This document shows positions 1,414 through 13,029 of a stretch of DNA of 13,463 bases, piece by piece. This stretch comes from a virus (lineage: Duplodnaviria > Heunggongvirae > Uroviricota > Caudoviricetes), in the IMG/VR virus record IMGVR_UViG_2529292718_000021; one strand, written 5' to 3'. The translations under genes and the position numbers were made by a program. The notes beneath the pieces are model-generated. The model worked only from the letters and a program-made list of their open reading frames with translations, was not told where the DNA came from and searched no databases. Positions within the stretch are counted from its first letter, which is position 1; every line of letters starts with the position of its first letter.

Positions 1414-2295
1414 ATGAGCAAATTGTTCCAGTTCAAAAGTTGGTTGACCATAGAGGAAACCGCAAACAGGTTAAGCACAACACTCGGTGAAAGGGTATCT
1501 GTAGCCGATTGCCTGCAATTGGCTGTAGAAGGCCACATTACAATTTCAGCGATATTGGACGAAGGCCGTTACGCTATCGCTGCTCAAGTCATCAAAAACT
1601 CGCAACGAAGAGTTTTTGAAAAGTGGATTGTTGAAAATACTAACGAAGGTGCGGTAATTAGAACTCCTGCCGGTGATGAATTCTATACCAATGAACAATT
1701 GGATTATGAATACGAAGATATAGAAAGAGTCAGTGATGTTTTTCGTATTAATCATGGCATATACGATCTACCGATGGTTGGGGCTGAATCTTTAGATGTT
1801 ATGCACGAGTTTGACCTTTCACGCGACAAGGTTCCCCGTGAATTTCACAACATGGAAGGTGCTTTCCTCTTAACAGAATTTGGTCTGGTGAATATTCTGA
1901 ACGCGTTCAATGAATATGCCATCAAGTCAGATGAAAATGGCAAACCTAAACTGTACGACAAAGAATCACAGAGGTTTGTTGACTTTAGCCTCGATGGTTA
2001 TCATCCCTTTTTCTATCCTGCTGATGGGCTGGGTAATGTCGAGTTCGTATTCAGAAAAGAAAATATTGCAGAATTTGAAAAGAAAACACTCAGTGATAAC
2101 AACAGTCTCCTGAACCTCGATGAAAGCCTTTTACTGCTTGGCGCGGTGCTCAACGCTTTAAAGAAAGCCGAACCAACTTCTAAAAGGTGGACACAAGAAG
2201 CCCTCAAAGCAGAAATGCTGGATAGGGGTTTAAAATTAAGCTCCCGCTTACTGGATGAATATTTCTCATCAGCTAACAAATCTTTTAAATCATAA
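1414..2295 (+). CDS. Hypothetical protein (293 aa), AT-rich cargo gene between int and alpA. N-terminal 40 residues look like a helix-turn-helix.
   Basis: Long ORF with a plausible RBS (AAAGG about 8 nt upstream). Visibly lower GC than neighbours. No catalytic motif recognised by eye. Confidence 0.75.
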   Translation: MSKLFQFKSWLTIEETANRLSTTLGERVSVADCLQLAVEGHITISAILDEGRYAIAAQVIKNSQRRVFEKWIVENTNEGAVIRTPAGDEFYTNEQLDYEYEDIERVSDVFRINHGIYDLPMVGAESLDVMHEFDLSRDKVPREFHNMEGAFLLTEFGLVNILNAFNEYAIKSDENGKPKLYDKESQRFVDFSLDGYHPFFYPADGLGNVEFVFRKENIAEFEKKTLSDNNSLLNLDESLLLLGAVLNALKKAEPTSKRWTQEALKAEMLDRGLKLSSRLLDEYFSSANKSFKS

Positions 2296-3065: not shown

Positions 3066-3899
3066 ATGAACATCGAAAAAAGCAGATTAATTTCTGAGGC
3101 TGCCCCTCATCTGAACGCCTCTCTGGGCACAATTAACGGTAATGAATTTGCCGCAATTGTCCCGGTTATTCCTGGTCATATCGGTGGGCGTGAAACCAAT
3201 ATTGTTAGCGCAAAAGCGTTACACAAAGCGTTGGGCGTGGGAAAAGACTTCTCTACATGGATCACTGATCGCATCTCTGAATATGACTTCACCATTGGGC
3301 ACGATTACTCAGTCCATAAAACAATTTCCCCAAATTTGGGGAAAAGCCCGAATGGCGCGGCTTACAGCAAGATAAAGCACTCTGGCAGACCCGGCAAAGA
3401 CTATCTGTTAAGTGTCGGAATGGCGAAAGAACTGGCAATGATCGAACGCAATGATCAGGGTCGCGCTATCCGCCGTTATTTCATCCAGTGCGAGGAAGAA
3501 TTACAGCGTACCGTGCCTGAAATCGCCGCCCGCTATCGTCGCCAGCTAAAAGCCCGTATCAGTGCCGCAAACAACTTTAAGCCAATGTGCGATGCGCTGA
3601 ATATGGCCCGTGCCGAGCAGGGGAAAACGACGCAGCAACACCACTACACAAACGAGAGCAATATGATTTCTCGTATCGTTCTTGGTGGGCTAACTGCCAA
3701 GCAGTGGGCGCGGATAAATGGCTATTCTGGCGAACCTCGCGACCATATGAACGCAGAACAGCTTGAGCACCTCTCATATCTCGAAAGCACCAATATCACG
3801 TTAATTGATATGGGCATGGAATATGAGCAGCGCAAAGGAGAACTCACCCGCCTGTCGCAACGCTGGCTCGCCAAGCGTCTGGAGGTAGTCAATGTCTAA
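3066..3899 (+). CDS. Phage antirepressor (AntA/P22 Ant-like N-terminal domain, KilAC-type C-terminal region).
   Basis: N-terminal SAKALHKALGVGKDFSTWITDRISEYDFTIGHDY matches the AntA antirepressor signature; length 277 aa; RBS GGAGA upstream. Confidence 0.8.
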   Translation: MNIEKSRLISEAAPHLNASLGTINGNEFAAIVPVIPGHIGGRETNIVSAKALHKALGVGKDFSTWITDRISEYDFTIGHDYSVHKTISPNLGKSPNGAAYSKIKHSGRPGKDYLLSVGMAKELAMIERNDQGRAIRRYFIQCEEELQRTVPEIAARYRRQLKARISAANNFKPMCDALNMARAEQGKTTQQHHYTNESNMISRIVLGGLTAKQWARINGYSGEPRDHMNAEQLEHLSYLESTNITLIDMGMEYEQRKGELTRLSQRWLAKRLEVVNV

Positions 3900-4074
3900 G
3901 CCAACAGGAACACCACAACCACAAAAACGCTACAAAGATGCCCACGGAGCACTCGTTACTGTCGAAAGCGTGTCTCACAACCGAGTGACGTTTTATCGCG
4001 ACGGGTATCAATCGCCATGCGTACAACCGCTGGCACGTTTCATGAAGGAGTTCGCGGAGGTTAACAAATGCTAA
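3892..4074 (+). CDS. DUF4222-like small prophage protein (60 aa), start overlapping the antirepressor stop.
   Basis: Translation ...HGALVTVESVSHNRVTFYRDGYQSPCVQPLARF... fits the DUF4222 pattern as remembered; translational coupling. Confidence 0.6.
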   Translation: MSKPTGTPQPQKRYKDAHGALVTVESVSHNRVTFYRDGYQSPCVQPLARFMKEFAEVNKC

Positions 4075-4505
4075 CCGTCCAGAAGAAGACATTTTCACTG
4101 GCAGGTATGTCGCCAAAATCCAGCAATATGACGGCAAAGTCAGGCATTAATACAGCAGATACAAGCAAAGTTTATCATTTGCTGGTGGTCGGAACGGATG
4201 CCTTAACCATACCAGAAATCTCGGGCGATGATATTAGCATTGAGAAGGTCAGCGGCTGCGCCAGAAAATTTCTGGTCGTAGATGATGTCTTCCGCTCGTG
4301 TAGTGACTCCACAAAAACATTCGTCCACGTGCGTGACGTTAACGAAATGAGCGCGATGTACTGTGCATCTGGTGCTTCCAATACTGAGTTTTCGGAGTCC
4401 ATAAAAAAGAGCTTGCCGTTATGCGGCAACACGGTTTATGGTTATAAGGCACCTCATAAAACGGGTGCCGGGATTAGGACCCCGCAGGCAATCGAGGCGA
4501 TACAT

Positions 4506-4526
4506 GACGCGCCAGCGTCTTTTTTT
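4506..4526 (+). terminator. Candidate intrinsic terminator inside the immunity-like leader upstream of the Icd-like gene.
   Basis: Stem GACGC (4506-4510) / GCGTC (4515-4519), loop GCCA, followed by seven T at 4520-4526. Confidence 0.4.
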
Positions 4527-4534
4527 GTATCGGC

Positions 4535-4665
4535 GCACACGCACACCTTATCAATGGTGGGCTGTATGGGGCTGACTTCGGTCAGGCTGGTTTCCTTGAT
4601 TGCCAGTAGTCCTAACCCTGTACAGTCCACCGCCAGCGAGCTTAGGACCTCCGGCGGTGGCTATA
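4535..4665 (+). ncRNA. Candidate structured leader / antisense-RNA-type immunity element (C4/CI-like), tentative.
   Basis: UUCG-tetraloop hairpin CTGAC-TTCG-GTCAG at 4572-4585; 8-bp complementary pair CCACCGCC (4627-4634) / GGCGGTGG (4653-4660) immediately before the Icd-like RBS. In P1 and P4 the icd/immunity genes are preceded by a processed antisense RNA. Coordinates approximate. Confidence 0.25.
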
Positions 4666-4690
4666 AACCATCAATCAAGGAGGCTGCCAC

Positions 4691-4885
4691 ATGCTGGCTA
4701 CTACCCCTACCCAAAAACCGCAATTTATCTGGATTATCGCCGCAGTTCGCCGCGATTGCCCGACAATTACCGCCAAAATTCATCATATTGCTGCCGAGTC
4801 TGAACGCGATGCTCGCCGTTCTCTGGTGCGCGATCACGTCTGCTTTTTTGCTGGTCGTATCCGCATGGAGGTGGCACATGATTAA
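4691..4885 (+). CDS. icd: Host cell division inhibitor Icd-like protein (64 aa).
   Basis: Perfect SD AAGGAGG 7 nt upstream; translation QFIWIIAAVRR...ESERDARRSLV..FFAGRI fits the Icd-like pattern (F.W...A.RR...ARR.L...FAAR) as remembered. Confidence 0.75.
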   Translation: MLATTPTQKPQFIWIIAAVRRDCPTITAKIHHIAAESERDARRSLVRDHVCFFAGRIRMEVAHD

Positions 4886-5096
4886 AACCTACGATGTGCA
4901 TATGGATCCCCTCGAACGCACAAGCCAGATCATCACACTGACAGAAGTGATTAACGACATTCTGGTGAGCAACTCTCCCTCACGAGACGAAAGACTGAAG
5001 GCGTTACTCGCGATATTGGATCTCGCCGTTCGTGACGTTCATTTCCTGCTGGAAGGTGGCGAAATGCCAGTAAAAACGGGGGCAACCAATGAATAA
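4878..5096 (+). CDS. Hypothetical small protein (72 aa), overlapping the icd stop by 8 nt.
   Basis: SD GGAGGTGG upstream of ATG 4878; helical, protein-like translation. Confidence 0.6.
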   Translation: MIKTYDVHMDPLERTSQIITLTEVINDILVSNSPSRDERLKALLAILDLAVRDVHFLLEGGEMPVKTGATNE

Positions 5097-5761: not shown

Positions 5762-5839
5762 TTTCTTAACTTTCCATGCAGAAGCAACGCCTGACGGCGT
5801 AAACATCATGTATGGCAGCAGAAATCAGAGAGGTAAAAC

Positions 5840-7180: not shown

Positions 7181-7354
7181 ATGGCTATTTCAGTAAAGCC
7201 AGTATTGATAAGTGAGAAGCAAATGGAAGCGATAAAGAAAATTCAGGAGGAGCAGCGTAAAAAATCAGAGGTAGGAGTTGCGCCAACGATCCACGAAATT
7301 GCTCGGGGATTAATGGATAAGGCGCTGGCTTACACTTTAACTGGACGTGGGTAA
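7181..7354 (+). CDS. Small protein (57 aa), putative ribbon-helix-helix-like DNA-binding protein; first gene of the operon.
   Basis: Strong RBS; N-terminal beta-strand-then-helix pattern (ISVKPVLISEKQMEAIKKI) is consistent with an RHH fold. Fold assignment is a guess. Confidence 0.55.
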   Translation: MAISVKPVLISEKQMEAIKKIQEEQRKKSEVGVAPTIHEIARGLMDKALAYTLTGRG

Positions 7355-7358
7355 ATTT

Positions 7359-8702
7359 ATGGCTACGTGGCAACAGGGTATTAATTCTGGTGGTTTTCTG
7401 GCTGGCATCGGTGCGCAAAATGAGAATGCGCCAAAGGCAAGCGACATTAACGCAACGCTTGGTCTGATCCGCGAAAACAATGAACTGGCTCGCTCAGGTG
7501 CAAATAACGTTGCTCTGACAGGTCTTCGTGGTCTGGCTGGAGTTGCTGACATTTATAAGCAGCAGCAACAGCAGGAACGTAAAGCGGCATTCCAGAAAGG
7601 TTATGCAGATGCTTATGCGTCCGGTGACAGGGAGCAGATGCGTAATCTTATTACAGCATTCCCAGAAGAGTTTGAGGAAGTCCGTAAAGGGATGAGTTAT
7701 GTCGATGATGCTCAAAGGGATGATTATGGCAATCTGGCGCTCAAAGCACAGGTAGCCTCATCGCTTGGTCAGGGCGCATTTGGCAGGTTCATGATGGATA
7801 ATGAGCAGGAGATGCGTCGTTTAGGTATCCCTCCAGAAACTATTGCTGAAATGCAGGTTAATGACCCGCAGGGCTTCCAGCATTTCGCAGGTAATCTGGC
7901 GCTGTTTTCTCTCGGTCATGAGAAGTATTTCGATATCAAAGATCAAATGGAAGGTCGTCGACTTGAGCAAGGGCGACTGGATGAAAGTATGCGTCAGGCT
8001 GACATGGAGAACGCGAGAGGATGGGCAAATATCCAGAACGCTCAACTAGACAGGGCTCAGCGAGCACAAATTCACTCAGATGAGATGGGATTGAAGCTAA
8101 TGGAGCTGGGGCAAAAAGGTAAGCCGTCAGCAGACTTAATTAAGGGATTAAATTCTGACATTACCAATTTTGGCAAAAATTATAACTCTGTCAGAGCGGC
8201 GGCAAACTCTCTGCAAGCCCTTAGCAAGGTAAATACTGGCGCTGCCCAACTTGGGATTATCTTCAACTACATGAAATCTCTTGACCCGCAGTCAGTCGTT
8301 CGTGAAGGCGAACAGGTTCAGGTAATGCGGTCTGATGGCATATGGGGACAAATCAAAGGATACATAGACCAGCTTAATGCTGGAAACGGCCTGTCGCAGG
8401 AGGCAAAGGATAACATTGTTAACGCCGCAAAAATCAACGCCAATGCTATGGGGCAGCAGTTTAACCAGCAGGTTGACGAGTATCTCGATACATATGGAGA
8501 AACTATTCCTCAGGGGCTAAGAAAAAGCCTTGAAAGAAGGAAAGCGAAGCTATTTGACGATGTTTCCGGGCAGCCTACATCACAGGCTGGCACTGGACAG
8601 GCAAAAGCGGCAACCGGAGGAATATCAGAAGGCGCAACGGCAACCAACCCTAAAACTGGTCAGAAAATCATTTACAGGAACGGAAAATGGCAGCAAATGT
8701 AA
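7359..8702 (+). CDS. Large hypothetical protein (447 aa from ATG 7359; 451 aa if GTG 7347 is used). Gln/Asn/Ala/Gly-rich, predicted coiled-coil, no catalytic motif seen.
   Basis: Long ORF; poly-Q tract (QQQQQ); no Walker A, no HxH or other enzymatic signature by eye. Confidence 0.8.
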   Translation: MATWQQGINSGGFLAGIGAQNENAPKASDINATLGLIRENNELARSGANNVALTGLRGLAGVADIYKQQQQQERKAAFQKGYADAYASGDREQMRNLITAFPEEFEEVRKGMSYVDDAQRDDYGNLALKAQVASSLGQGAFGRFMMDNEQEMRRLGIPPETIAEMQVNDPQGFQHFAGNLALFSLGHEKYFDIKDQMEGRRLEQGRLDESMRQADMENARGWANIQNAQLDRAQRAQIHSDEMGLKLMELGQKGKPSADLIKGLNSDITNFGKNYNSVRAAANSLQALSKVNTGAAQLGIIFNYMKSLDPQSVVREGEQVQVMRSDGIWGQIKGYIDQLNAGNGLSQEAKDNIVNAAKINANAMGQQFNQQVDEYLDTYGETIPQGLRKSLERRKAKLFDDVSGQPTSQAGTGQAKAATGGISEGATATNPKTGQKIIYRNGKWQQM

Positions 8703-10804
8703 TCTTACCGGAAGGTTTTGTGCTCGATGAACAACCTGATAACTCACAGTTTCCTGATAGTTCACAGCTTCCTGATGGTTTTGTGCTTGATGCCCAACCA
8801 GAACAGCAGCAATCACCTTTGGTTTCACCAGAGGAAAATTCCAGACAGGAAAATGTTGTTAATAATGCTAACGGTTTCGACCGTTTTATGTATGGCGTTC
8901 TCAGTGGATTGATGGATGTTGGTAAAGGTGTTGGCCTGTTTCAGGATATGACACCAGAAGAGCAAGCCGCAATTCAGTCTCTACAGCAGAAGTTAGCGGC
9001 AAAACCATCAACCGCACAAGATGTTGGTGAGTTCGTTGGACAAGCAGCGCCATTTGTTAGTGGTGGTGGGATTATTTCTCAGGTTCCCAAAGGGGCGGCA
9101 AGACTGGCTGCCGCCGCAGGGCTTGGGGCTGGAGAAGGGGCTATTGTAGCCAATGGAACAAATAGCGATGTTGCTTCCGGCGCTGCTATTGGCGCTGTGG
9201 CTGGCCCTGTAGCCGAACTTGCTGGCCCTGCAATTAATAAAATAGCTGGGAAATTAACCAAGAAGAATGTTTCTTCGATTCCAGATATTGAGGGGATTAC
9301 TCCTACCGAAGAGAAAATTCGTAAGTTATCTGCACAAGGCAACCCAAATCTTGCCTCTTCGCTTGAAGGGCTAGATCTAAAACCTCAGAAAGAAATTGTT
9401 GAGGCTGCAAATAGGCTTCATGTTGATTCAGTTCTTCCTTCTCATTTATCAGGAAATGAGCAATACCAAGCTGTAGAGCAAGCCCTAAAGTCACGGACAG
9501 GATCAGCGTTAAAAGCTCAAGAAGATAAAGCAATAAGCGAATTAGCCTCTAGTGCTGGCAAGATAATCGATGATGTTGCTGGTGCGCCAGATGCGTTAGC
9601 TATGAGCGAAAAATATATTTATCAGATAAATAGTAGAATGGAAGCACTAAAAAACCGTAGTGATCAGTTATATAAACGTGTTGATTCCGCTCTATCACCA
9701 AGAACAAAAGTCGAAGCAAATAACACAAGCACTATGCTGGAAAAAATCGCTGATGATTTAGGAGGGTGGGATAATCTTGACCCAATAGAAAAGCGAGTTT
9801 TTACAGCAATAAACCCCGGCCCAGATAGCATCCTAACGTATGCAAATTTAAACAGGCAAAGGCGTTTAGTTGGTGATGCCCTAAATAAAAAGCAGGGGCC
9901 ATACAAAGATGCTGATAAAGAAGCGCTATCAAGACTATATGGAGCTTTAGCTGAAGACCAAAAATCTGTCTTATCCAATACTGGATACTTGCGAGATTTC
10001 GAAGTCGCACAACGCCTTGTAGCTATGAGAAAAAACTTAGAAAGGCAAATGGTAAATCTTCGCGGGAAAACACTTAATGGGGATATAGCGTATAAAGTAA
10101 CGAATTCTCTTCAATCTATGGCAAAAGGTGATGCGAGAGGGTTTCGTGAGATTATGCAAAATACTCCATCAAGAACATTGCGAAGGGAGCTAGTAGGAAC
10201 AGCATTAAGAGATATGCTTTCCTCTGGGAAGCGTGGGGCCGACTTTAATCCATCTGGCTTTGCAGATTGGTGGCAAAACTTGCAACACAGTGGACAGCTA
10301 AAGACTTTGGCTGAACATTTGCCAAAAGAAACAATGAGCGGACTATATGATGTATACAAAGTTGCCAGAGCAATAAAAAATGCTAAAGCGCATGAAATAT
10401 CTACTGGTAAGCTGAATGAGTTTGTAAACAGATTTAATCGGGTAACAGCTCCATACGAACTAGCAGCAAAACACATTCAAAAAATAGGCACGATGGTACG
10501 CGCTCATTTTGGATCGCTTGGAGCCATTGCTGGGGCTGATATTGGAGCAAGATTGGCGAGTAAAGCTCGATTAGCTGGTGGAGCAGGGGCGGCTGATGCT
10601 GCGGATAAATTAATTGCCTCGCCAGCCTTCCAGAGCGCAGTAAAAAATCTACACGGAAAAGCGCCTGGGCACATTGTTGATTCACGTATCAGGCGCTCCC
10701 CTCAATGGAAGAGTTTTTTTAACTCTCTTCCTGAACAGGAAAAACGGACCATCGCCAGACTGGGCATCATTACTTGGCTATCTAATGATCCAGATAATGA
10801 CTAG
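8687..10804 (+). CDS. Large hypothetical protein (705 aa), start overlapping the upstream gene by 16 nt. Has an N-terminal tandem peptide repeat and Gly/Ala-zipper-like segments; the gene is compositionally mosaic.
   Basis: Repeat LPEGFVLDEQP / LPDGFVLDAQP (DNA repeat GGTTTTGTGCT[C/T]GATG at 8714-8729 and 8777-8792, 63-bp period); segments such as AAAAGLGAGEGAIVANG and GSLGAIAGADIGARLA; the 5' third is near backbone GC while the 3' ~1.5 kb is clearly AT-richer. Confidence 0.85.
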   Translation: MAANVILPEGFVLDEQPDNSQFPDSSQLPDGFVLDAQPEQQQSPLVSPEENSRQENVVNNANGFDRFMYGVLSGLMDVGKGVGLFQDMTPEEQAAIQSLQQKLAAKPSTAQDVGEFVGQAAPFVSGGGIISQVPKGAARLAAAAGLGAGEGAIVANGTNSDVASGAAIGAVAGPVAELAGPAINKIAGKLTKKNVSSIPDIEGITPTEEKIRKLSAQGNPNLASSLEGLDLKPQKEIVEAANRLHVDSVLPSHLSGNEQYQAVEQALKSRTGSALKAQEDKAISELASSAGKIIDDVAGAPDALAMSEKYIYQINSRMEALKNRSDQLYKRVDSALSPRTKVEANNTSTMLEKIADDLGGWDNLDPIEKRVFTAINPGPDSILTYANLNRQRRLVGDALNKKQGPYKDADKEALSRLYGALAEDQKSVLSNTGYLRDFEVAQRLVAMRKNLERQMVNLRGKTLNGDIAYKVTNSLQSMAKGDARGFREIMQNTPSRTLRRELVGTALRDMLSSGKRGADFNPSGFADWWQNLQHSGQLKTLAEHLPKETMSGLYDVYKVARAIKNAKAHEISTGKLNEFVNRFNRVTAPYELAAKHIQKIGTMVRAHFGSLGAIAGADIGARLASKARLAGGAGAADAADKLIASPAFQSAVKNLHGKAPGHIVDSRIRRSPQWKSFFNSLPEQEKRTIARLGIITWLSNDPDND

Positions 10805-11680: not shown

Positions 11681-11703
11681 TCGACAGCATACACATTGGA
11701 TAT

Positions 11704-11904
11704 TCATTTTGTGACCAATGCGATAAGTAGCGGGATAAGAATTGATAAAATCAACAGGACGATGATCCACTTCTGATTCTCGTCCATCTTATCTGCTAGG
11801 CGACGCTCCATTCCGTGCATATCACCGCGAATGGCAATCATCTCATTGCGAACATCCGAGAAGTGGTTGGCTTGATGTTCAATGTGTGGCGTTCTGCCTT
11901 TCAT
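11704..11904 (-). CDS. Small membrane protein (66 aa), N-terminal charged/coiled region plus a C-terminal TM helix; XhlA-like prophage protein (tentative).
   Basis: C-terminal WIIVLLILSILIPLLIALV hydrophobic helix; architecture resembles short XhlA-family proteins as remembered. Confidence 0.55.
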   Translation of the reverse strand: MKGRTPHIEHQANHFSDVRNEMIAIRGDMHGMERRLADKMDENQKWIIVLLILSILIPLLIALVTK

Positions 11905-11983
11905 TCCTGATCCTCACCTATCGTCACCACCTGCTGGTGTATAAAGGTATTGGCCCAAGCAGCTTTCCAATGGGCACTCATGT

Positions 11984-12439
11984 TTATACGCTGACCTTAC
12001 AATCAATCACCGCTTTTAACTTTTCAGCATTGCTTCCCTGACGCTTCCACGCGCTGTAAATATCTTTATCCCACGCTTTACCAGCTTTTGTTTGATAGCC
12101 TGCTTCATTGATCCGTTCAGCTATCACACGCCCATTATCAAATCCCTGTCGGATGGTATCGGCAATGATCTTTATAACTGCCGTTTCGTTATATGGCTTT
12201 GGTGGGATGTTCGGCTTTCCGGCAATAAGCGACGCAGCGGCTTTTTCCATGCGCTCCACCAGCCCAAGCATTCGTGAATCAATAGACTTTTTCGGCTGTC
12301 CCAGCTTCATGCGAATCGCATCAACAAGCCAGGAGGTTTTATCTCCTCCAGAAGCGAGAACAGACCGATTAAACTCATCCTGCAATTCAGATGGGATGCG
12401 GAACGCGACCAGATTAGATTTGCTCATTGCAAAGACCAT
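11984..12439 (-). CDS. Ribbon-helix-helix (Arc/Mnt/CopG-like) DNA-binding protein with a C-terminal extension; putative repressor. Alternative start at 12427.
   Basis: N-terminal NLVAFRIPSELQDEFNRSVLASGGDKTSWLVDAIRMKL follows the Arc/Mnt RHH pattern (compare P22 Mnt FNFRMPMEVREKL...); palindromic operator-like site immediately upstream. Confidence 0.7.
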   Translation of the reverse strand: MVFAMSKSNLVAFRIPSELQDEFNRSVLASGGDKTSWLVDAIRMKLGQPKKSIDSRMLGLVERMEKAAASLIAGKPNIPPKPYNETAVIKIIADTIRQGFDNGRVIAERINEAGYQTKAGKAWDKDIYSAWKRQGSNAEKLKAVIDCKVSV

Positions 12440-12456
12440 ATCAGTGAGTAATATCC

Positions 12457-12475
12457 ATACAGTATACCACTGTAT
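12457..12475. promoter_or_regulatory. Palindrome ATACAGT-ATACC-ACTGTAT upstream of the RHH gene; candidate operator.
   Basis: 7-bp arms are exact reverse complements; a related ACACTGTTATAC follows at 12477-12490. Confidence 0.45.
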
Positions 12476-12541
12476 AACACTGTTATACGCTCAAATATCA
12501 GCCAGAAAATAACGGACCAATCACAAATCTATCGCTGTGTT

Positions 12542-12592
12542 GTTGGTTCAGAGCTGGGCTGTGTTGGTTCAAAATGAGTTGATGTTGGTTCA
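12542..12592. repeat. Three direct GTTGGTTCA iterons spaced exactly 21 bp apart.
   Basis: Copies at 12542-12550, 12563-12571 and 12584-12592. Confidence 0.7.
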
Positions 12593-12635
12593 ATATTTCA
12601 GAAAAAACACAATAAAAACAACAATCTTTACAAAT

Positions 12636-12662
12636 TGAACCAACTGAACCAACTGAACCAAC
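12636..12662. repeat. Three tandem TGAACCAAC 9-mers (reverse complement of the upstream iterons), separated from them by an AT-rich spacer and overlapping the -35 region of the perC-like gene.
   Basis: Copies at 12636-12644, 12645-12653 and 12654-12662; AT-rich 12593-12635. Confidence 0.7.
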
Positions 12663-12685
12663 ACCTTTTTGCTTATCTATATAAT
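12654..12685 (+). promoter_or_regulatory. Candidate promoter of the PerC-like gene: consensus -10 TATAAT at 12680-12685, -35 embedded in the last TGAACCAAC repeat.
   Basis: TATAAT hexamer 14 nt upstream of the ATG at 12699, SD GAGAGG in between; non-canonical spacer. Confidence 0.35.
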
Positions 12686-12698
12686 CTGAGAGGCAGAA

Positions 12699-12980
12699 AT
12701 GATAAGGGACAGGAAAGCTGAAGAGCTGGAGTCAAAAGGGCTATACCGGAGAGCTGCCGCACGATGGATGGAAGTCATGCTGTTATGCACCGAGGACGAT
12801 GATCGGGAATGGATAAAGCGCCGCCGTGAAACGTGTCTGGAGAACGTGAAGCGCCCGCCCGTGAAGGTTGAGGAATTTGGCGACCTGCATAAAGCTGTTA
12901 CCGAAACGCAACACCGCATGGGGATAGCGCAACCGAACGGTAACGCCTTCCGGTTAAATGGCGGCAAGAGGCAAAGGTAG
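12699..12980 (+). CDS. perC: PerC-family transcriptional activator (93 aa).
   Basis: N-terminal MIRDRKAEELESKGLYRRAAARWMEVM matches the conserved PerC/Pch N-terminus as remembered. Confidence 0.8.
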   Translation: MIRDRKAEELESKGLYRRAAARWMEVMLLCTEDDDREWIKRRRETCLENVKRPPVKVEEFGDLHKAVTETQHRMGIAQPNGNAFRLNGGKRQR

Positions 12981-12984
12981 ACCA

Positions 12985-13006
12985 CCAGAGGGAAATCATC
13001 CTCTGG
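12985..13006 (+). terminator. Hairpin CCAGAGG-N8-CCTCTGG downstream of perC; weak candidate terminator.
   Basis: 7-bp perfect stem, followed by moderately U-rich CTGGCGGTTTCTGGTATTT. Confidence 0.35.
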
Positions 13007-13029
13007 CTGGCGGTTTCTGGTATTTCGGG

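Follow-up and report, generated by a model that had tools for sequence, protein, structure and literature searches.

The int–alpA interval of an E. coli island

The DNA analyzed here, a stretch of 13,463 nucleotides from the IMG/VR virus record IMGVR_UViG_2529292718_000021 (Caudoviricetes; hereafter the window), covers the greater part of a phage-satellite-type island in the E. coli chromosome. A single gene, which we call X, fills the interval between the integrase gene (int) and the gene for an AlpA-family regulator (alpA) and is the subject of this report. The open reading frame (ORF) of X runs from 1414 to 2295 on the + strand, starts with ATG and encodes 293 amino acids (aa). Its GC content of 0.408, against about 0.50–0.54 in int and alpA, agrees with a first-pass annotation, made from the sequence alone, that had pointed to a low-GC ORF between the two genes. 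X begins 93 bp after int, in a gap that holds an int–alpA RNA motif, and is co-oriented with alpA; a dN/dS of 0.13 against a 95%-identical Enterobacter copy indicates purifying selection. The features of the interval are as follows.

61–1320, + strand: P4-type tyrosine integrase (Pfam Arm-DNA-bind_3, Phage_int_M and Phage_integrase; RefSeq annotation of the 99.9% identical island L001, next to yicC)
1329–1395, + strand: int–alpA RNA motif, Rfam RF02996 (66.1 bits against a gathering score of 35.8; full length, 1–71)
1396–1413, + strand: small hairpin with a Shine–Dalgarno (SD)-like AAAGG in its loop, directly before the X start codon (minimum free energy fold; conservation)
1414–2295, + strand: slot gene X
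2304–2332, no strand assigned: operator-like palindrome, whose two dyad sites with 20-bp spacing are TCGCAACGA, centred at 2308, and TCGTTGCGA, centred at 2328 (conservation, repeat scan)
2332–2360, + strand: putative alpA promoter, with −35-like ATGACA (2332–2337), a 17-nt spacer and −10-like CATGAT (2355–2360) (consensus scan)
2365–2393, + strand: alpA leader hairpin that pairs the SD region (AGGAG, 2385–2389) (fold; backbone element)
2401–2619, + strand: alpA, AlpA-family regulator/excisionase (Pfam PF05930, E 7e-6, above the gathering score; RefSeq annotation)

The int ORF is open from base 1, and position 61 is the equivalent of the start annotated in its relatives. The longest alpA ORF begins at 2332, within the palindrome and the predicted −35 element; the start at 2401, giving 72 aa, is backed by RefSeq and by alignment with relatives. 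Both inverted repeats described in the first-pass annotation exist (1328–1336/1375–1383 and 2304–2315/2321–2332), but they do not bracket the gene as had been supposed: they are unrelated to one another, the left one being part of an Rfam RNA and the right one an operator-like palindrome, and neither is a cassette end.

A variable slot with exchangeable contents

The int-to-alpA region has a match in 682 of 5,426 complete E. coli genomes, 37 of which carry X: 21 hold a near-identical copy, 13 an allele of 67% identity, and three match over the last 214 bp only. Other islands at the yicC site contain single + strand slot genes of 216–321 aa with GC contents of 0.36–0.43; their sequences are hardly or not at all similar to that of X and, for the most part, to one another. 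Islands at other sites contain a DUF6387 protein, a 128-aa reverse-strand ORF or the very protein that one of the yicC islands has. Comparison of individual islands (designated by L numbers) gave the following nucleotide identities.

Window and L074: int 92.9%, slot gene 99.9%, spacer to alpA 99%, alpA 80.8%
L004 and L073: int 66.4%, slot gene 99.8%, spacer to alpA 100%, alpA 87.3%
L004 and L005: int 99.4%, slot gene unrelated, spacer to alpA not comparable, alpA 99.0%

The slot gene is thus swapped like a cassette between islands: near-identical backbones hold unrelated genes (L004 and L005), and slot genes of 99.8–99.9% identity stand beside integrases that are 66–93% identical. The earlier proposal of a variable slot at this position is borne out. 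The P4 hotspot that it alluded to is located between int and psu and not between int and alpA (PMC10803314). The left junction of the cassette is the start codon, the int–alpA RNA and the hairpin at the ribosome-binding site being common to unrelated cassettes; the right junction lies about 40–45 nt upstream of the alpA start codon.

Among 40 evenly sampled islands, the slot uniformly contained one short gene and in no case an annotated or recognised defence system. The slot genes tolerated by the same backbone include the DUF6387 gene, the 128-aa reverse ORF and the small EcCIMP1_002. In L003 (E. coli GN02100), a slot gene of 216 aa (1614–2264) overlaps the int stop codon by 4 nt, in the manner of the ‘iolg’ genes of Vibrio PICMIs (minimalist chromosomal islands that phages can induce), and is followed by a 471-bp spacer that carries its own repeat pair with 21-bp spacing. 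The L004-type genes form a second slot family (alignment A3, P0226–P0273), which is mosaic and unannotated throughout: about 40 proteins share a highly conserved C-terminal domain of about 75 aa (ERHAxNREKLFKSAI...ITNEDVILKHLRSAANGK), which is joined to at least three different N-terminal and middle parts.

X represents a large, unannotated protein family

A word-indexed search returned 54 relatives of X, all annotated as ‘hypothetical’ and all from Enterobacterales except for one Neptunomonas protein and one protein of unknown origin. A profile search of 1.84 billion cluster representatives (50% identity clusters) extended the family to 2,210 clusters at E ≤1e-3, 396 of them at ≤1e-30. X had no match in Pfam, NCBIfam, PHROGs or PADLOC, and no Pfam domain was found in 87 diverse relatives; every relative is named ‘hypothetical protein’ in the databases, and no paper citing accessions of the family was found. 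An AlphaFold model of X (pLDDT, the model confidence score, 87.7) has three parts.

Residues ~8–48: N-terminal Xis/MerR-like winged helix (model; the first ~53 residues superpose on the winged helices of Xis, AlpA and MerR)
Residues ~50–225: beta-rich middle domain (AlphaFold model)
Residues ~235–292: C-terminal three-helix domain, helix-turn-helix (HTH)-like (AlphaFold model, sequence pattern)

The HTH-like N-terminus noted in the first-pass annotation is retained, as a winged helix in the model. The C-terminal domain, previously left unassigned, is now HTH-like on the basis of weak matches, and the two are separated by a novel beta-rich domain with no structural relative among PDB or viral structures. 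Neither Pfam nor structure comparison detected an enzymatic or effector domain in X. A T7 capsid protein (E 0.17), the only match in a sequence-profile search of solved structures, was dismissed as spurious.

Conservation is unevenly distributed along the protein. Mean pairwise identity across the family is 57% in the N-terminal 50 residues and 20% in the C-terminal part, and the middle-domain motifs GIYDLPMxGAExLD and FYPADGLxxVEFVFR are about 45% identical. The C-terminal HTH-like pattern takes two forms, G-x-P-x-S/T-D-D-T-I/V-R-K-x-L (form 1) and G-x-x-x-S-x-R-x-L-D-x-Y-F-S-x-A-N-K (form 2). Form-1 domains weakly but repeatedly match the HTHs of Tc3 and Sleeping Beauty (PF01498 in 11 of 32 members, best E 0.0027; PDB 5unk, E 0.025).

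The N-terminal fold places X near two well-known groups of DNA-binding proteins. It is shared with excisionases (Xis/AlpA/Vis; Pfam HTH_17, Phage_AlpA), which belong to the same MerR/excisionase superfamily of winged helices; X differs in its length of 293 aa with two extra domains, in the lack of a Pfam match and in the loss of basic residues from the ‘recognition’ helix. An origin of X as an AlpA paralogue was rejected, as hhalign against an AlpA alignment gave no N-terminal match. With MerR factors X shares only the N-terminal fold, with no match to the Pfam MerR families. MerR factors combine their HTH with a coiled-coil dimeriser and an effector domain, and their operators lie inside a −35/−10 spacer of 19–20 bp, whereas at the X locus the predicted spacer is 17 bp and the sites are upstream of the −35 element.

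The family resides between int and alpA

The order int > X > alpA-like holds for all five homologues whose genomic contexts were inspected; these come from Neptunomonas, Yersinia, Brenneria, Salmonella and Providencia and occupy different sites in the chromosome. A pattern scan that covered one genome per species yielded 51 loci from Gamma-, Beta- and Deltaproteobacteria, 44 of them with enough upstream DNA for inspection. A P4-type integrase on the same strand ends less than 200 bp upstream of X in 28 of the 44, including three in which it overlaps X by 8 nt and two more in which it ends 2 and 12 bp before X. The remainder comprise one decayed int (overlapping fragments), six loci with int at 0.4–1 kb, four with int at 2.4–3.1 kb and five with none within 4 kb, so that an integrase lies within 3.1 kb upstream in 39 of 44 loci. 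In 33 of the 51, X is succeeded by a small ORF resembling AlpA.

Searches with tblastn found no copy of the family in 50,697 phage records and a single copy in 72,556 plasmid records, on a Paraburkholderia replicon of 1.9 Mb. This near-absence, together with the strict synteny, indicates from the sequence record that the family lives in the int–alpA slot and is not free-floating cargo. In Variovorax robiniae (L046), two family members stand in tandem between int and alpA (3359–3997 and 4001–4819), with the int–alpA RNA preceding the first. In L025, L041 and L042, int and X are 2.5–3 kb apart, which shows that extra genes can enter the slot.

Paired sites accompany the slot gene at the putative alpA promoter

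The right inverted repeat lies directly after the X stop codon and abuts the putative alpA promoter. Its arms are perfect over 12 bp and separated by a 5-nt loop (TCGCAnCGAAAA-N5-TTTTCGnTGCGA), and the corresponding hairpin is far above chance (−18.4 kcal/mol, z = −5.6, 0/200 shuffles). Across nine Enterobacterales genera, in which X is 42–58% identical to that of the window, the sequence after the stop codon is invariant, TCGCAnCGAAAA-N5-TTTTCGnTGCGATGAC(A/T), apart from position 6 of the half-site. Because the changes at position 6 are uncompensated, conservation suggests that the palindrome is a protein site rather than an RNA stem.

Paired dyads are a feature of the wider family. Two copies matching at 9 or more of 10 positions are present in the first 75 nt after the stop codon at 28 of 40 family loci, the control rates being 4.3% in 949 windows drawn at random from those loci and 2.1% in 1,000 shuffles. 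Their start-to-start spacing is 17–24 bp, mostly 20–21 bp, and in distant members they are often direct repeats. The dyads, of about 10 bp, are lineage-specific (for example CCGAATTCGG, CCGCATACGG, GGCAATTGCC and TTGGTTAACC); site type tracks the type of C-terminal motif, with the N-terminal domain staying the same.

Island comparisons reveal that the sites are co-inherited with the slot gene and not with the AlpA allele. The window and L074 are 99–100% identical in X and the spacer, against 80.8% in alpA DNA. Conversely, L074 and L003 encode identical AlpA proteins, but the slot gene of L003 is a different one, as is its pair (two copies of TTTCAATAGATT with 21-bp spacing). An identical AlpA is also shared by L004 and L005, which differ in their slot genes; the pair in L005 is AATAAAATTTA twice, 21 bp apart, and the same scan found no pair in L004. 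The presence of different pairs in islands with identical AlpA led us to reject AlpA autoregulatory sites. Sites for the arm-binding domain of Int were likewise rejected, on account of the distance from the attachment (att) sites and of the lack of further copies: in the 31-kb locus L001, the only exact copies are the 2304–2332 pair, about 2.3 kb from the int-proximal island end and not in the att arms. Within the coding sequence of X, an inverted repeat with perfect 10-bp arms (1592–1619) has in its loop a one-mismatch copy of the operator half-site, TCGCAACGAAGA (1600–1611), possibly by chance.

The site pairs of the islands compared end 68–88 nt upstream of the alpA start codon. In the putative promoter that follows, ATGAC(A/T) and the final AT of the −10 element are invariant at fixed spacing across the nine genera, and the spacer is otherwise variable. 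Farther downstream, the stem of the alpA leader hairpin shows compensatory changes between genera, such as CCCGTAAC/GTTACGGG versus CCCCGTTAC/GTAACGGGG, a pattern that suggests translational control of alpA. Equivalents of this hairpin were found in L010, L012, L014, L016, L025, L029, L034, L035, L038 and L049, and it matches no Rfam family.

The int–alpA RNA, a possible leader of whichever gene fills the slot

The left inverted repeat has perfect 9-bp arms around a 38-nt loop, and its hairpin alone is not stronger than chance (z = −1.3, shuffles). It is contained in a full-length, above-threshold member of Rfam RF02996, in which the outer stem shows compensatory changes between islands. At 12 of 18 loci, Neptunomonas among them, unrelated slot genes have the motif 15–20 nt upstream of their start codon, and it is present as well in five of 17 distant loci (Betaproteobacterial or Methylococcales); by these comparisons it belongs to the backbone and not to the cassette-specific part. 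Rfam files RF02996 as a small RNA (sRNA) gene. Since the motif ends 15–20 nt before the start codon of whichever slot gene is present, its position suggests a cis-acting leader or a 3′ element of int rather than a free-standing sRNA gene. The sequence of the adjoining hairpin, AGCGCGAAAGGTTACGCT, is conserved ahead of unrelated slot genes in L002, L004, L005 and L007. The arrangement of RNA plus hairpin (1329–1413 in the window) recurs in these four loci and in L008, L010, L014, L016, L019, L020, L037, L046, L054, L055, L064, L071 and L073.

A proposed regulator-plus-operator cassette

We propose that X is an exchangeable DNA-binding regulator that is inherited with its own sites and gates alpA, a model to which we assign an even chance of being correct. 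AlpA is the master activator/excisionase in related satellites (PMC11773190; PMC10803314). The exchangeable unit would extend from the start codon at 1414 to about 2360 and comprise the gene, its pair of 9-bp dyad sites with 20-bp spacing and the core promoter of alpA. X would be made in the integrated state, with its translation signals and the int–alpA RNA leader supplied by the int-side backbone, and would occupy both sites as a dimer of dimers, using the variable HTH at its C-terminus. With a predicted transcription start of alpA near 2367, the site centres would fall at about −39 and −59, where X would set whether alpA is transcribed. The conserved N-terminal winged helix and the beta domain would be the constant part of the protein, contacting a conserved partner or receiving the inducing signal, and different cassettes in one slot would be alternative switches.

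We lean towards X being an activating or licensing factor rather than a repressor, because of the upstream geometry of the sites and the deletion phenotype of PICMI iolg. Sites upstream of a core promoter, and not over it, are usual for activators, and they are also compatible with repression by occlusion of the −35 element. The iolg gene is required for PICMI excision, and 13 unrelated families occupy its position (PMC10803314); excision of PIME1 likewise requires a luxR gene that lies in the regulatory region, divergent to alpA (bioRxiv 10.64898/2026.01.12.698999). A role as the protein master repressor of the whole island is weakened by the P4-type isrK/C4 RNA immunity that the island possesses.

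A more specific version of the model can be put forward only tentatively, and we consider it rather less probable than not. Here, the role of helper-phage-responsive switch in Gram-negative phage-inducible chromosomal islands (PICIs) and P4-like islands would fall to the X family and, by analogy, to other slot genes of the winged-helix type. X would be a constitutive sensor and transcription factor sitting on the alpA promoter, at its sites near −40 and −60, and helper infection would turn on or release alpA. If correct, this would explain the polymorphism of the slot, the need for iolg in PICMI excision and the confinement of the family to the int–alpA module, and a cassette swap (protein, sites and promoter) would re-tune which helper induces the island.

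Several observations weigh against X as the regulator of alpA. The island already has P4-type RNA immunity, with isrK and C4 at 4449–4637. The same backbone works with very different slot genes, and some PICMIs have none, so the function of the slot is replaceable. A clear site pair was not found in 12 of the 40 family loci, and the two sites of the window also form a strong hairpin that scores terminator-like on the minus strand. The promoter is a consensus-level prediction of a kind that is not enriched in the region (three matches found versus 2.0 expected). As to the protein, the C-terminal HTH call derives from sub-threshold matches, and for the subtype in the window from pattern similarity and the model only. 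In the N-terminal domain, acidic and hydrophobic residues make up the would-be recognition helix (SVADCLQLAVEG), and this domain may therefore not contact DNA. Binding and regulation by X are inferred from sequence; that an identical slot gene works beside differing alpA alleles is expected if X acts on DNA and is no proof that it does.

Alternative roles for X

The first-pass annotation had read X as anti-phage or abortive-infection cargo. A stand-alone protein of this type, or an exclusion protein, would be expressed from the integrated island and would shield the host, and perhaps the helper, from other phages; its presence in a slot that serves as a defence hotspot would account for the low GC content of 0.41, for cassette replacement between near-identical islands and for the recent spread of an identical copy into diverged backbones. 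That expression signals are shared with int implies that X is expressed while the island is quiescent, an exclusion factor could be a DNA-binding protein, and immune systems are reported from the 5′ or 3′ ends of PICIs (PMC11364771; the content of the PICI 5′ region is second-hand). However, PADLOC returned no hit for X, for two distant members or for seven of eight alternative slot proteins, the sole match being weak (PDC-S31, E 0.002), and the 40 evenly sampled islands held neither an annotated defence system nor more than one short gene in the slot. The family is absent from the phage records searched, nearly so from plasmids, and was found only between int and alpA in the contexts examined; it has no detected enzymatic or effector domain, and its cognate sites are on the island itself, at the alpA promoter, rather than on foreign DNA. 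This combination of int > X > alpA confinement and the hallmarks of a regulator makes the defence reading improbable.

Alternatively, X could be an excision or integration co-factor of the iolg/icg class that joins Int and AlpA architecturally or confers directionality. It occupies the position of PICMI iolg/icg, where 13 unrelated families are found and where the gene is needed for excision of PICMI115. Overlap with int by 8 nt, or a start 2–12 bp after it, in L047, L048, L050, L038 and L049 suggests translational coupling, and the E. coli L003 slot gene overlaps int by 4 nt. Moreover, the N-terminal fold matches excisionases, and its very high conservation fits contact with a conserved partner such as Int. 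Against this role, the only copies of the sites are about 2.3 kb from the int-proximal end and not in the att arms, identical slot proteins serve integrases that are 66% identical in DNA and use different att sites (yicC versus der), and AlpA is already an excisionase-type factor. The PICMI deletion was complemented only by int and iolg together (PMC10803314), which leaves a direct part of iolg in recombination unproven, and its phenotype also fits an alpA activator. We therefore regard a co-factor role as doubtful.

It is very unlikely that the right repeat is a mere terminator or 3′ stabiliser of X, with X having an island-internal or host-directed role unlinked to alpA: the hairpin is strong (−18.4 kcal/mol, z = −5.6), reads as terminator-like on the minus strand and has counterparts in the canonical stem-plus-T-run terminators that end the slot genes of L004 and L006 at the same place, but no T-run follows the stem on the coding strand, sequence rather than pairing is conserved across genera, with position 6 uncompensated, and the direct repeats of distant members are unable to form a hairpin.

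The island and its other genes

The window is 100% identical to NZ_CP062855 over the 3.1 kb tested and 98.6–99.5% identical to island L001 (NZ_OZ547150), which lies between yicC and dinD. As in Gram-negative PICIs and P4-like satellites, a P4-type integrase stands at one end, an AlpA-family regulator lies downstream and the genes are mostly co-oriented. On the + strand, the order is int, X, alpA, a PM1773-family gene, an AntA-type gene, a DUF4222 gene, an Ash-family ORF that holds the isrK and C4 RNAs, several small genes, two genes for P22-like DNA-ejection proteins and, near the end, a PerC gene.

The matches to isrK (4449–4525) and C4 antisense RNA (4550–4637), of 63 and 80 bits, fall within the 342-aa ‘Ash family’ ORF (4068–5096) and represent, as judged from these matches, the P4-type RNA immunity of the island; the long ORF may be partly spurious or may be the host gene for isrK and C4, as in P4. 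No primase or replicase module was found in the window: the DUF5906 primase of L001 falls in a segment of about 3.3 kb that the window lacks (junction at 5811–5820, against 19822–23088 in L001). The alignments on either side of this junction overlap by 10 bases, as expected for a deletion between short repeats. Because this segment with the primase is missing, the present copy of the island is a deletion derivative and probably replication-defective.

The two ejection/injectosome proteins (7347–8702 and 8687–10804; Pfam Inj_translocase, 247 bits; PHROG 6704/770, ‘DNA transfer protein’) are unaccompanied by capsid or tail genes in the island. A further 1.3 kb (11681–13016) is missing from L001 and contains a gene for a PerC-family regulator (12699–12980; PF06069, 104 bits) and two reverse-strand ORFs. 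This layout resembles that of EcCIMP1, a PICI mobilised by the P22-like phage Kapi1 (PMC11773190), which likewise has ‘DNA transfer’ genes and whose PerC homologue silenced LEE1 in Citrobacter rodentium (PMC11773190). Helper induction and packaging are known only for this related island, with Kapi1.

Relation to known systems and significance

The closest positional counterparts of X are the iolg/icg (integrase-overlapping or integrase-contiguous) genes of PICMIs, satellites of Vibrionaceae, which also lie directly after int or overlap it, precede alpA on the same strand, belong to many mutually unrelated families and are tied to induction, PICMI115 iolg being needed for excision (PMC10803314). 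X differs in being separated from int by 93 bp with the int–alpA RNA, and the likeness drawn here is one of position; neither an Xis-like domain nor cognate sites have been reported for iolg (PMC10803314). In PIME1, the regulatory region holds, with alpA, a gene for a LuxR-family transcription factor without which the element neither excises nor replicates (bioRxiv 10.64898/2026.01.12.698999). That regulator belongs to an unrelated family, its gene is in divergent orientation, and it answers to a helper plasmid, not to a phage. In the K-12 cryptic prophage CP4-57, the int–alpA interval is also filled by a single uncharacterised gene, yfjH (intA–yfjH–alpA), of about 318 aa; YfjH is read from the other strand and has no detectable similarity to X, and the int–alpA RNA was not found there.

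A more distant parallel is Stl of the Staphylococcus aureus pathogenicity islands (SaPIs), an island-encoded HTH protein next to int that is highly polymorphic and controls the promoter of the activation and excision module. Stl is transcribed divergently, carries an HTH of the Cro/CI type and has been proven to act as a repressor, from which phage proteins bring release. X, as a predicted regulator, would resemble Stl in its adjacency to int, its polymorphism and its place at a would-be helper-sensing point, and it differs in being co-oriented with alpA, in its architecture and in having sites upstream of the core promoter. Stl2 is mentioned in PMC11846896.

A variable slot and the int–alpA RNA were already known or foreseeable. 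As far as the literature searched shows, the large unannotated family, its strict int–alpA residence and the gene-plus-operator cassette at the alpA promoter are new. For genome mining, low-GC single genes in the int–alpA slot should not be booked as defence candidates by position alone, and the Rfam int–alpA RNA may be placed as a slot-gene leader rather than a free-standing sRNA. If X instead turns out to act in defence or exclusion, the factor would be new, and its restriction to one genomic slot would be unusual. The way in which a helper phage turns alpA on is an acknowledged gap in the understanding of Gram-negative satellites, and the X family, with its ~2,200 clusters, is a concrete candidate for that switch.

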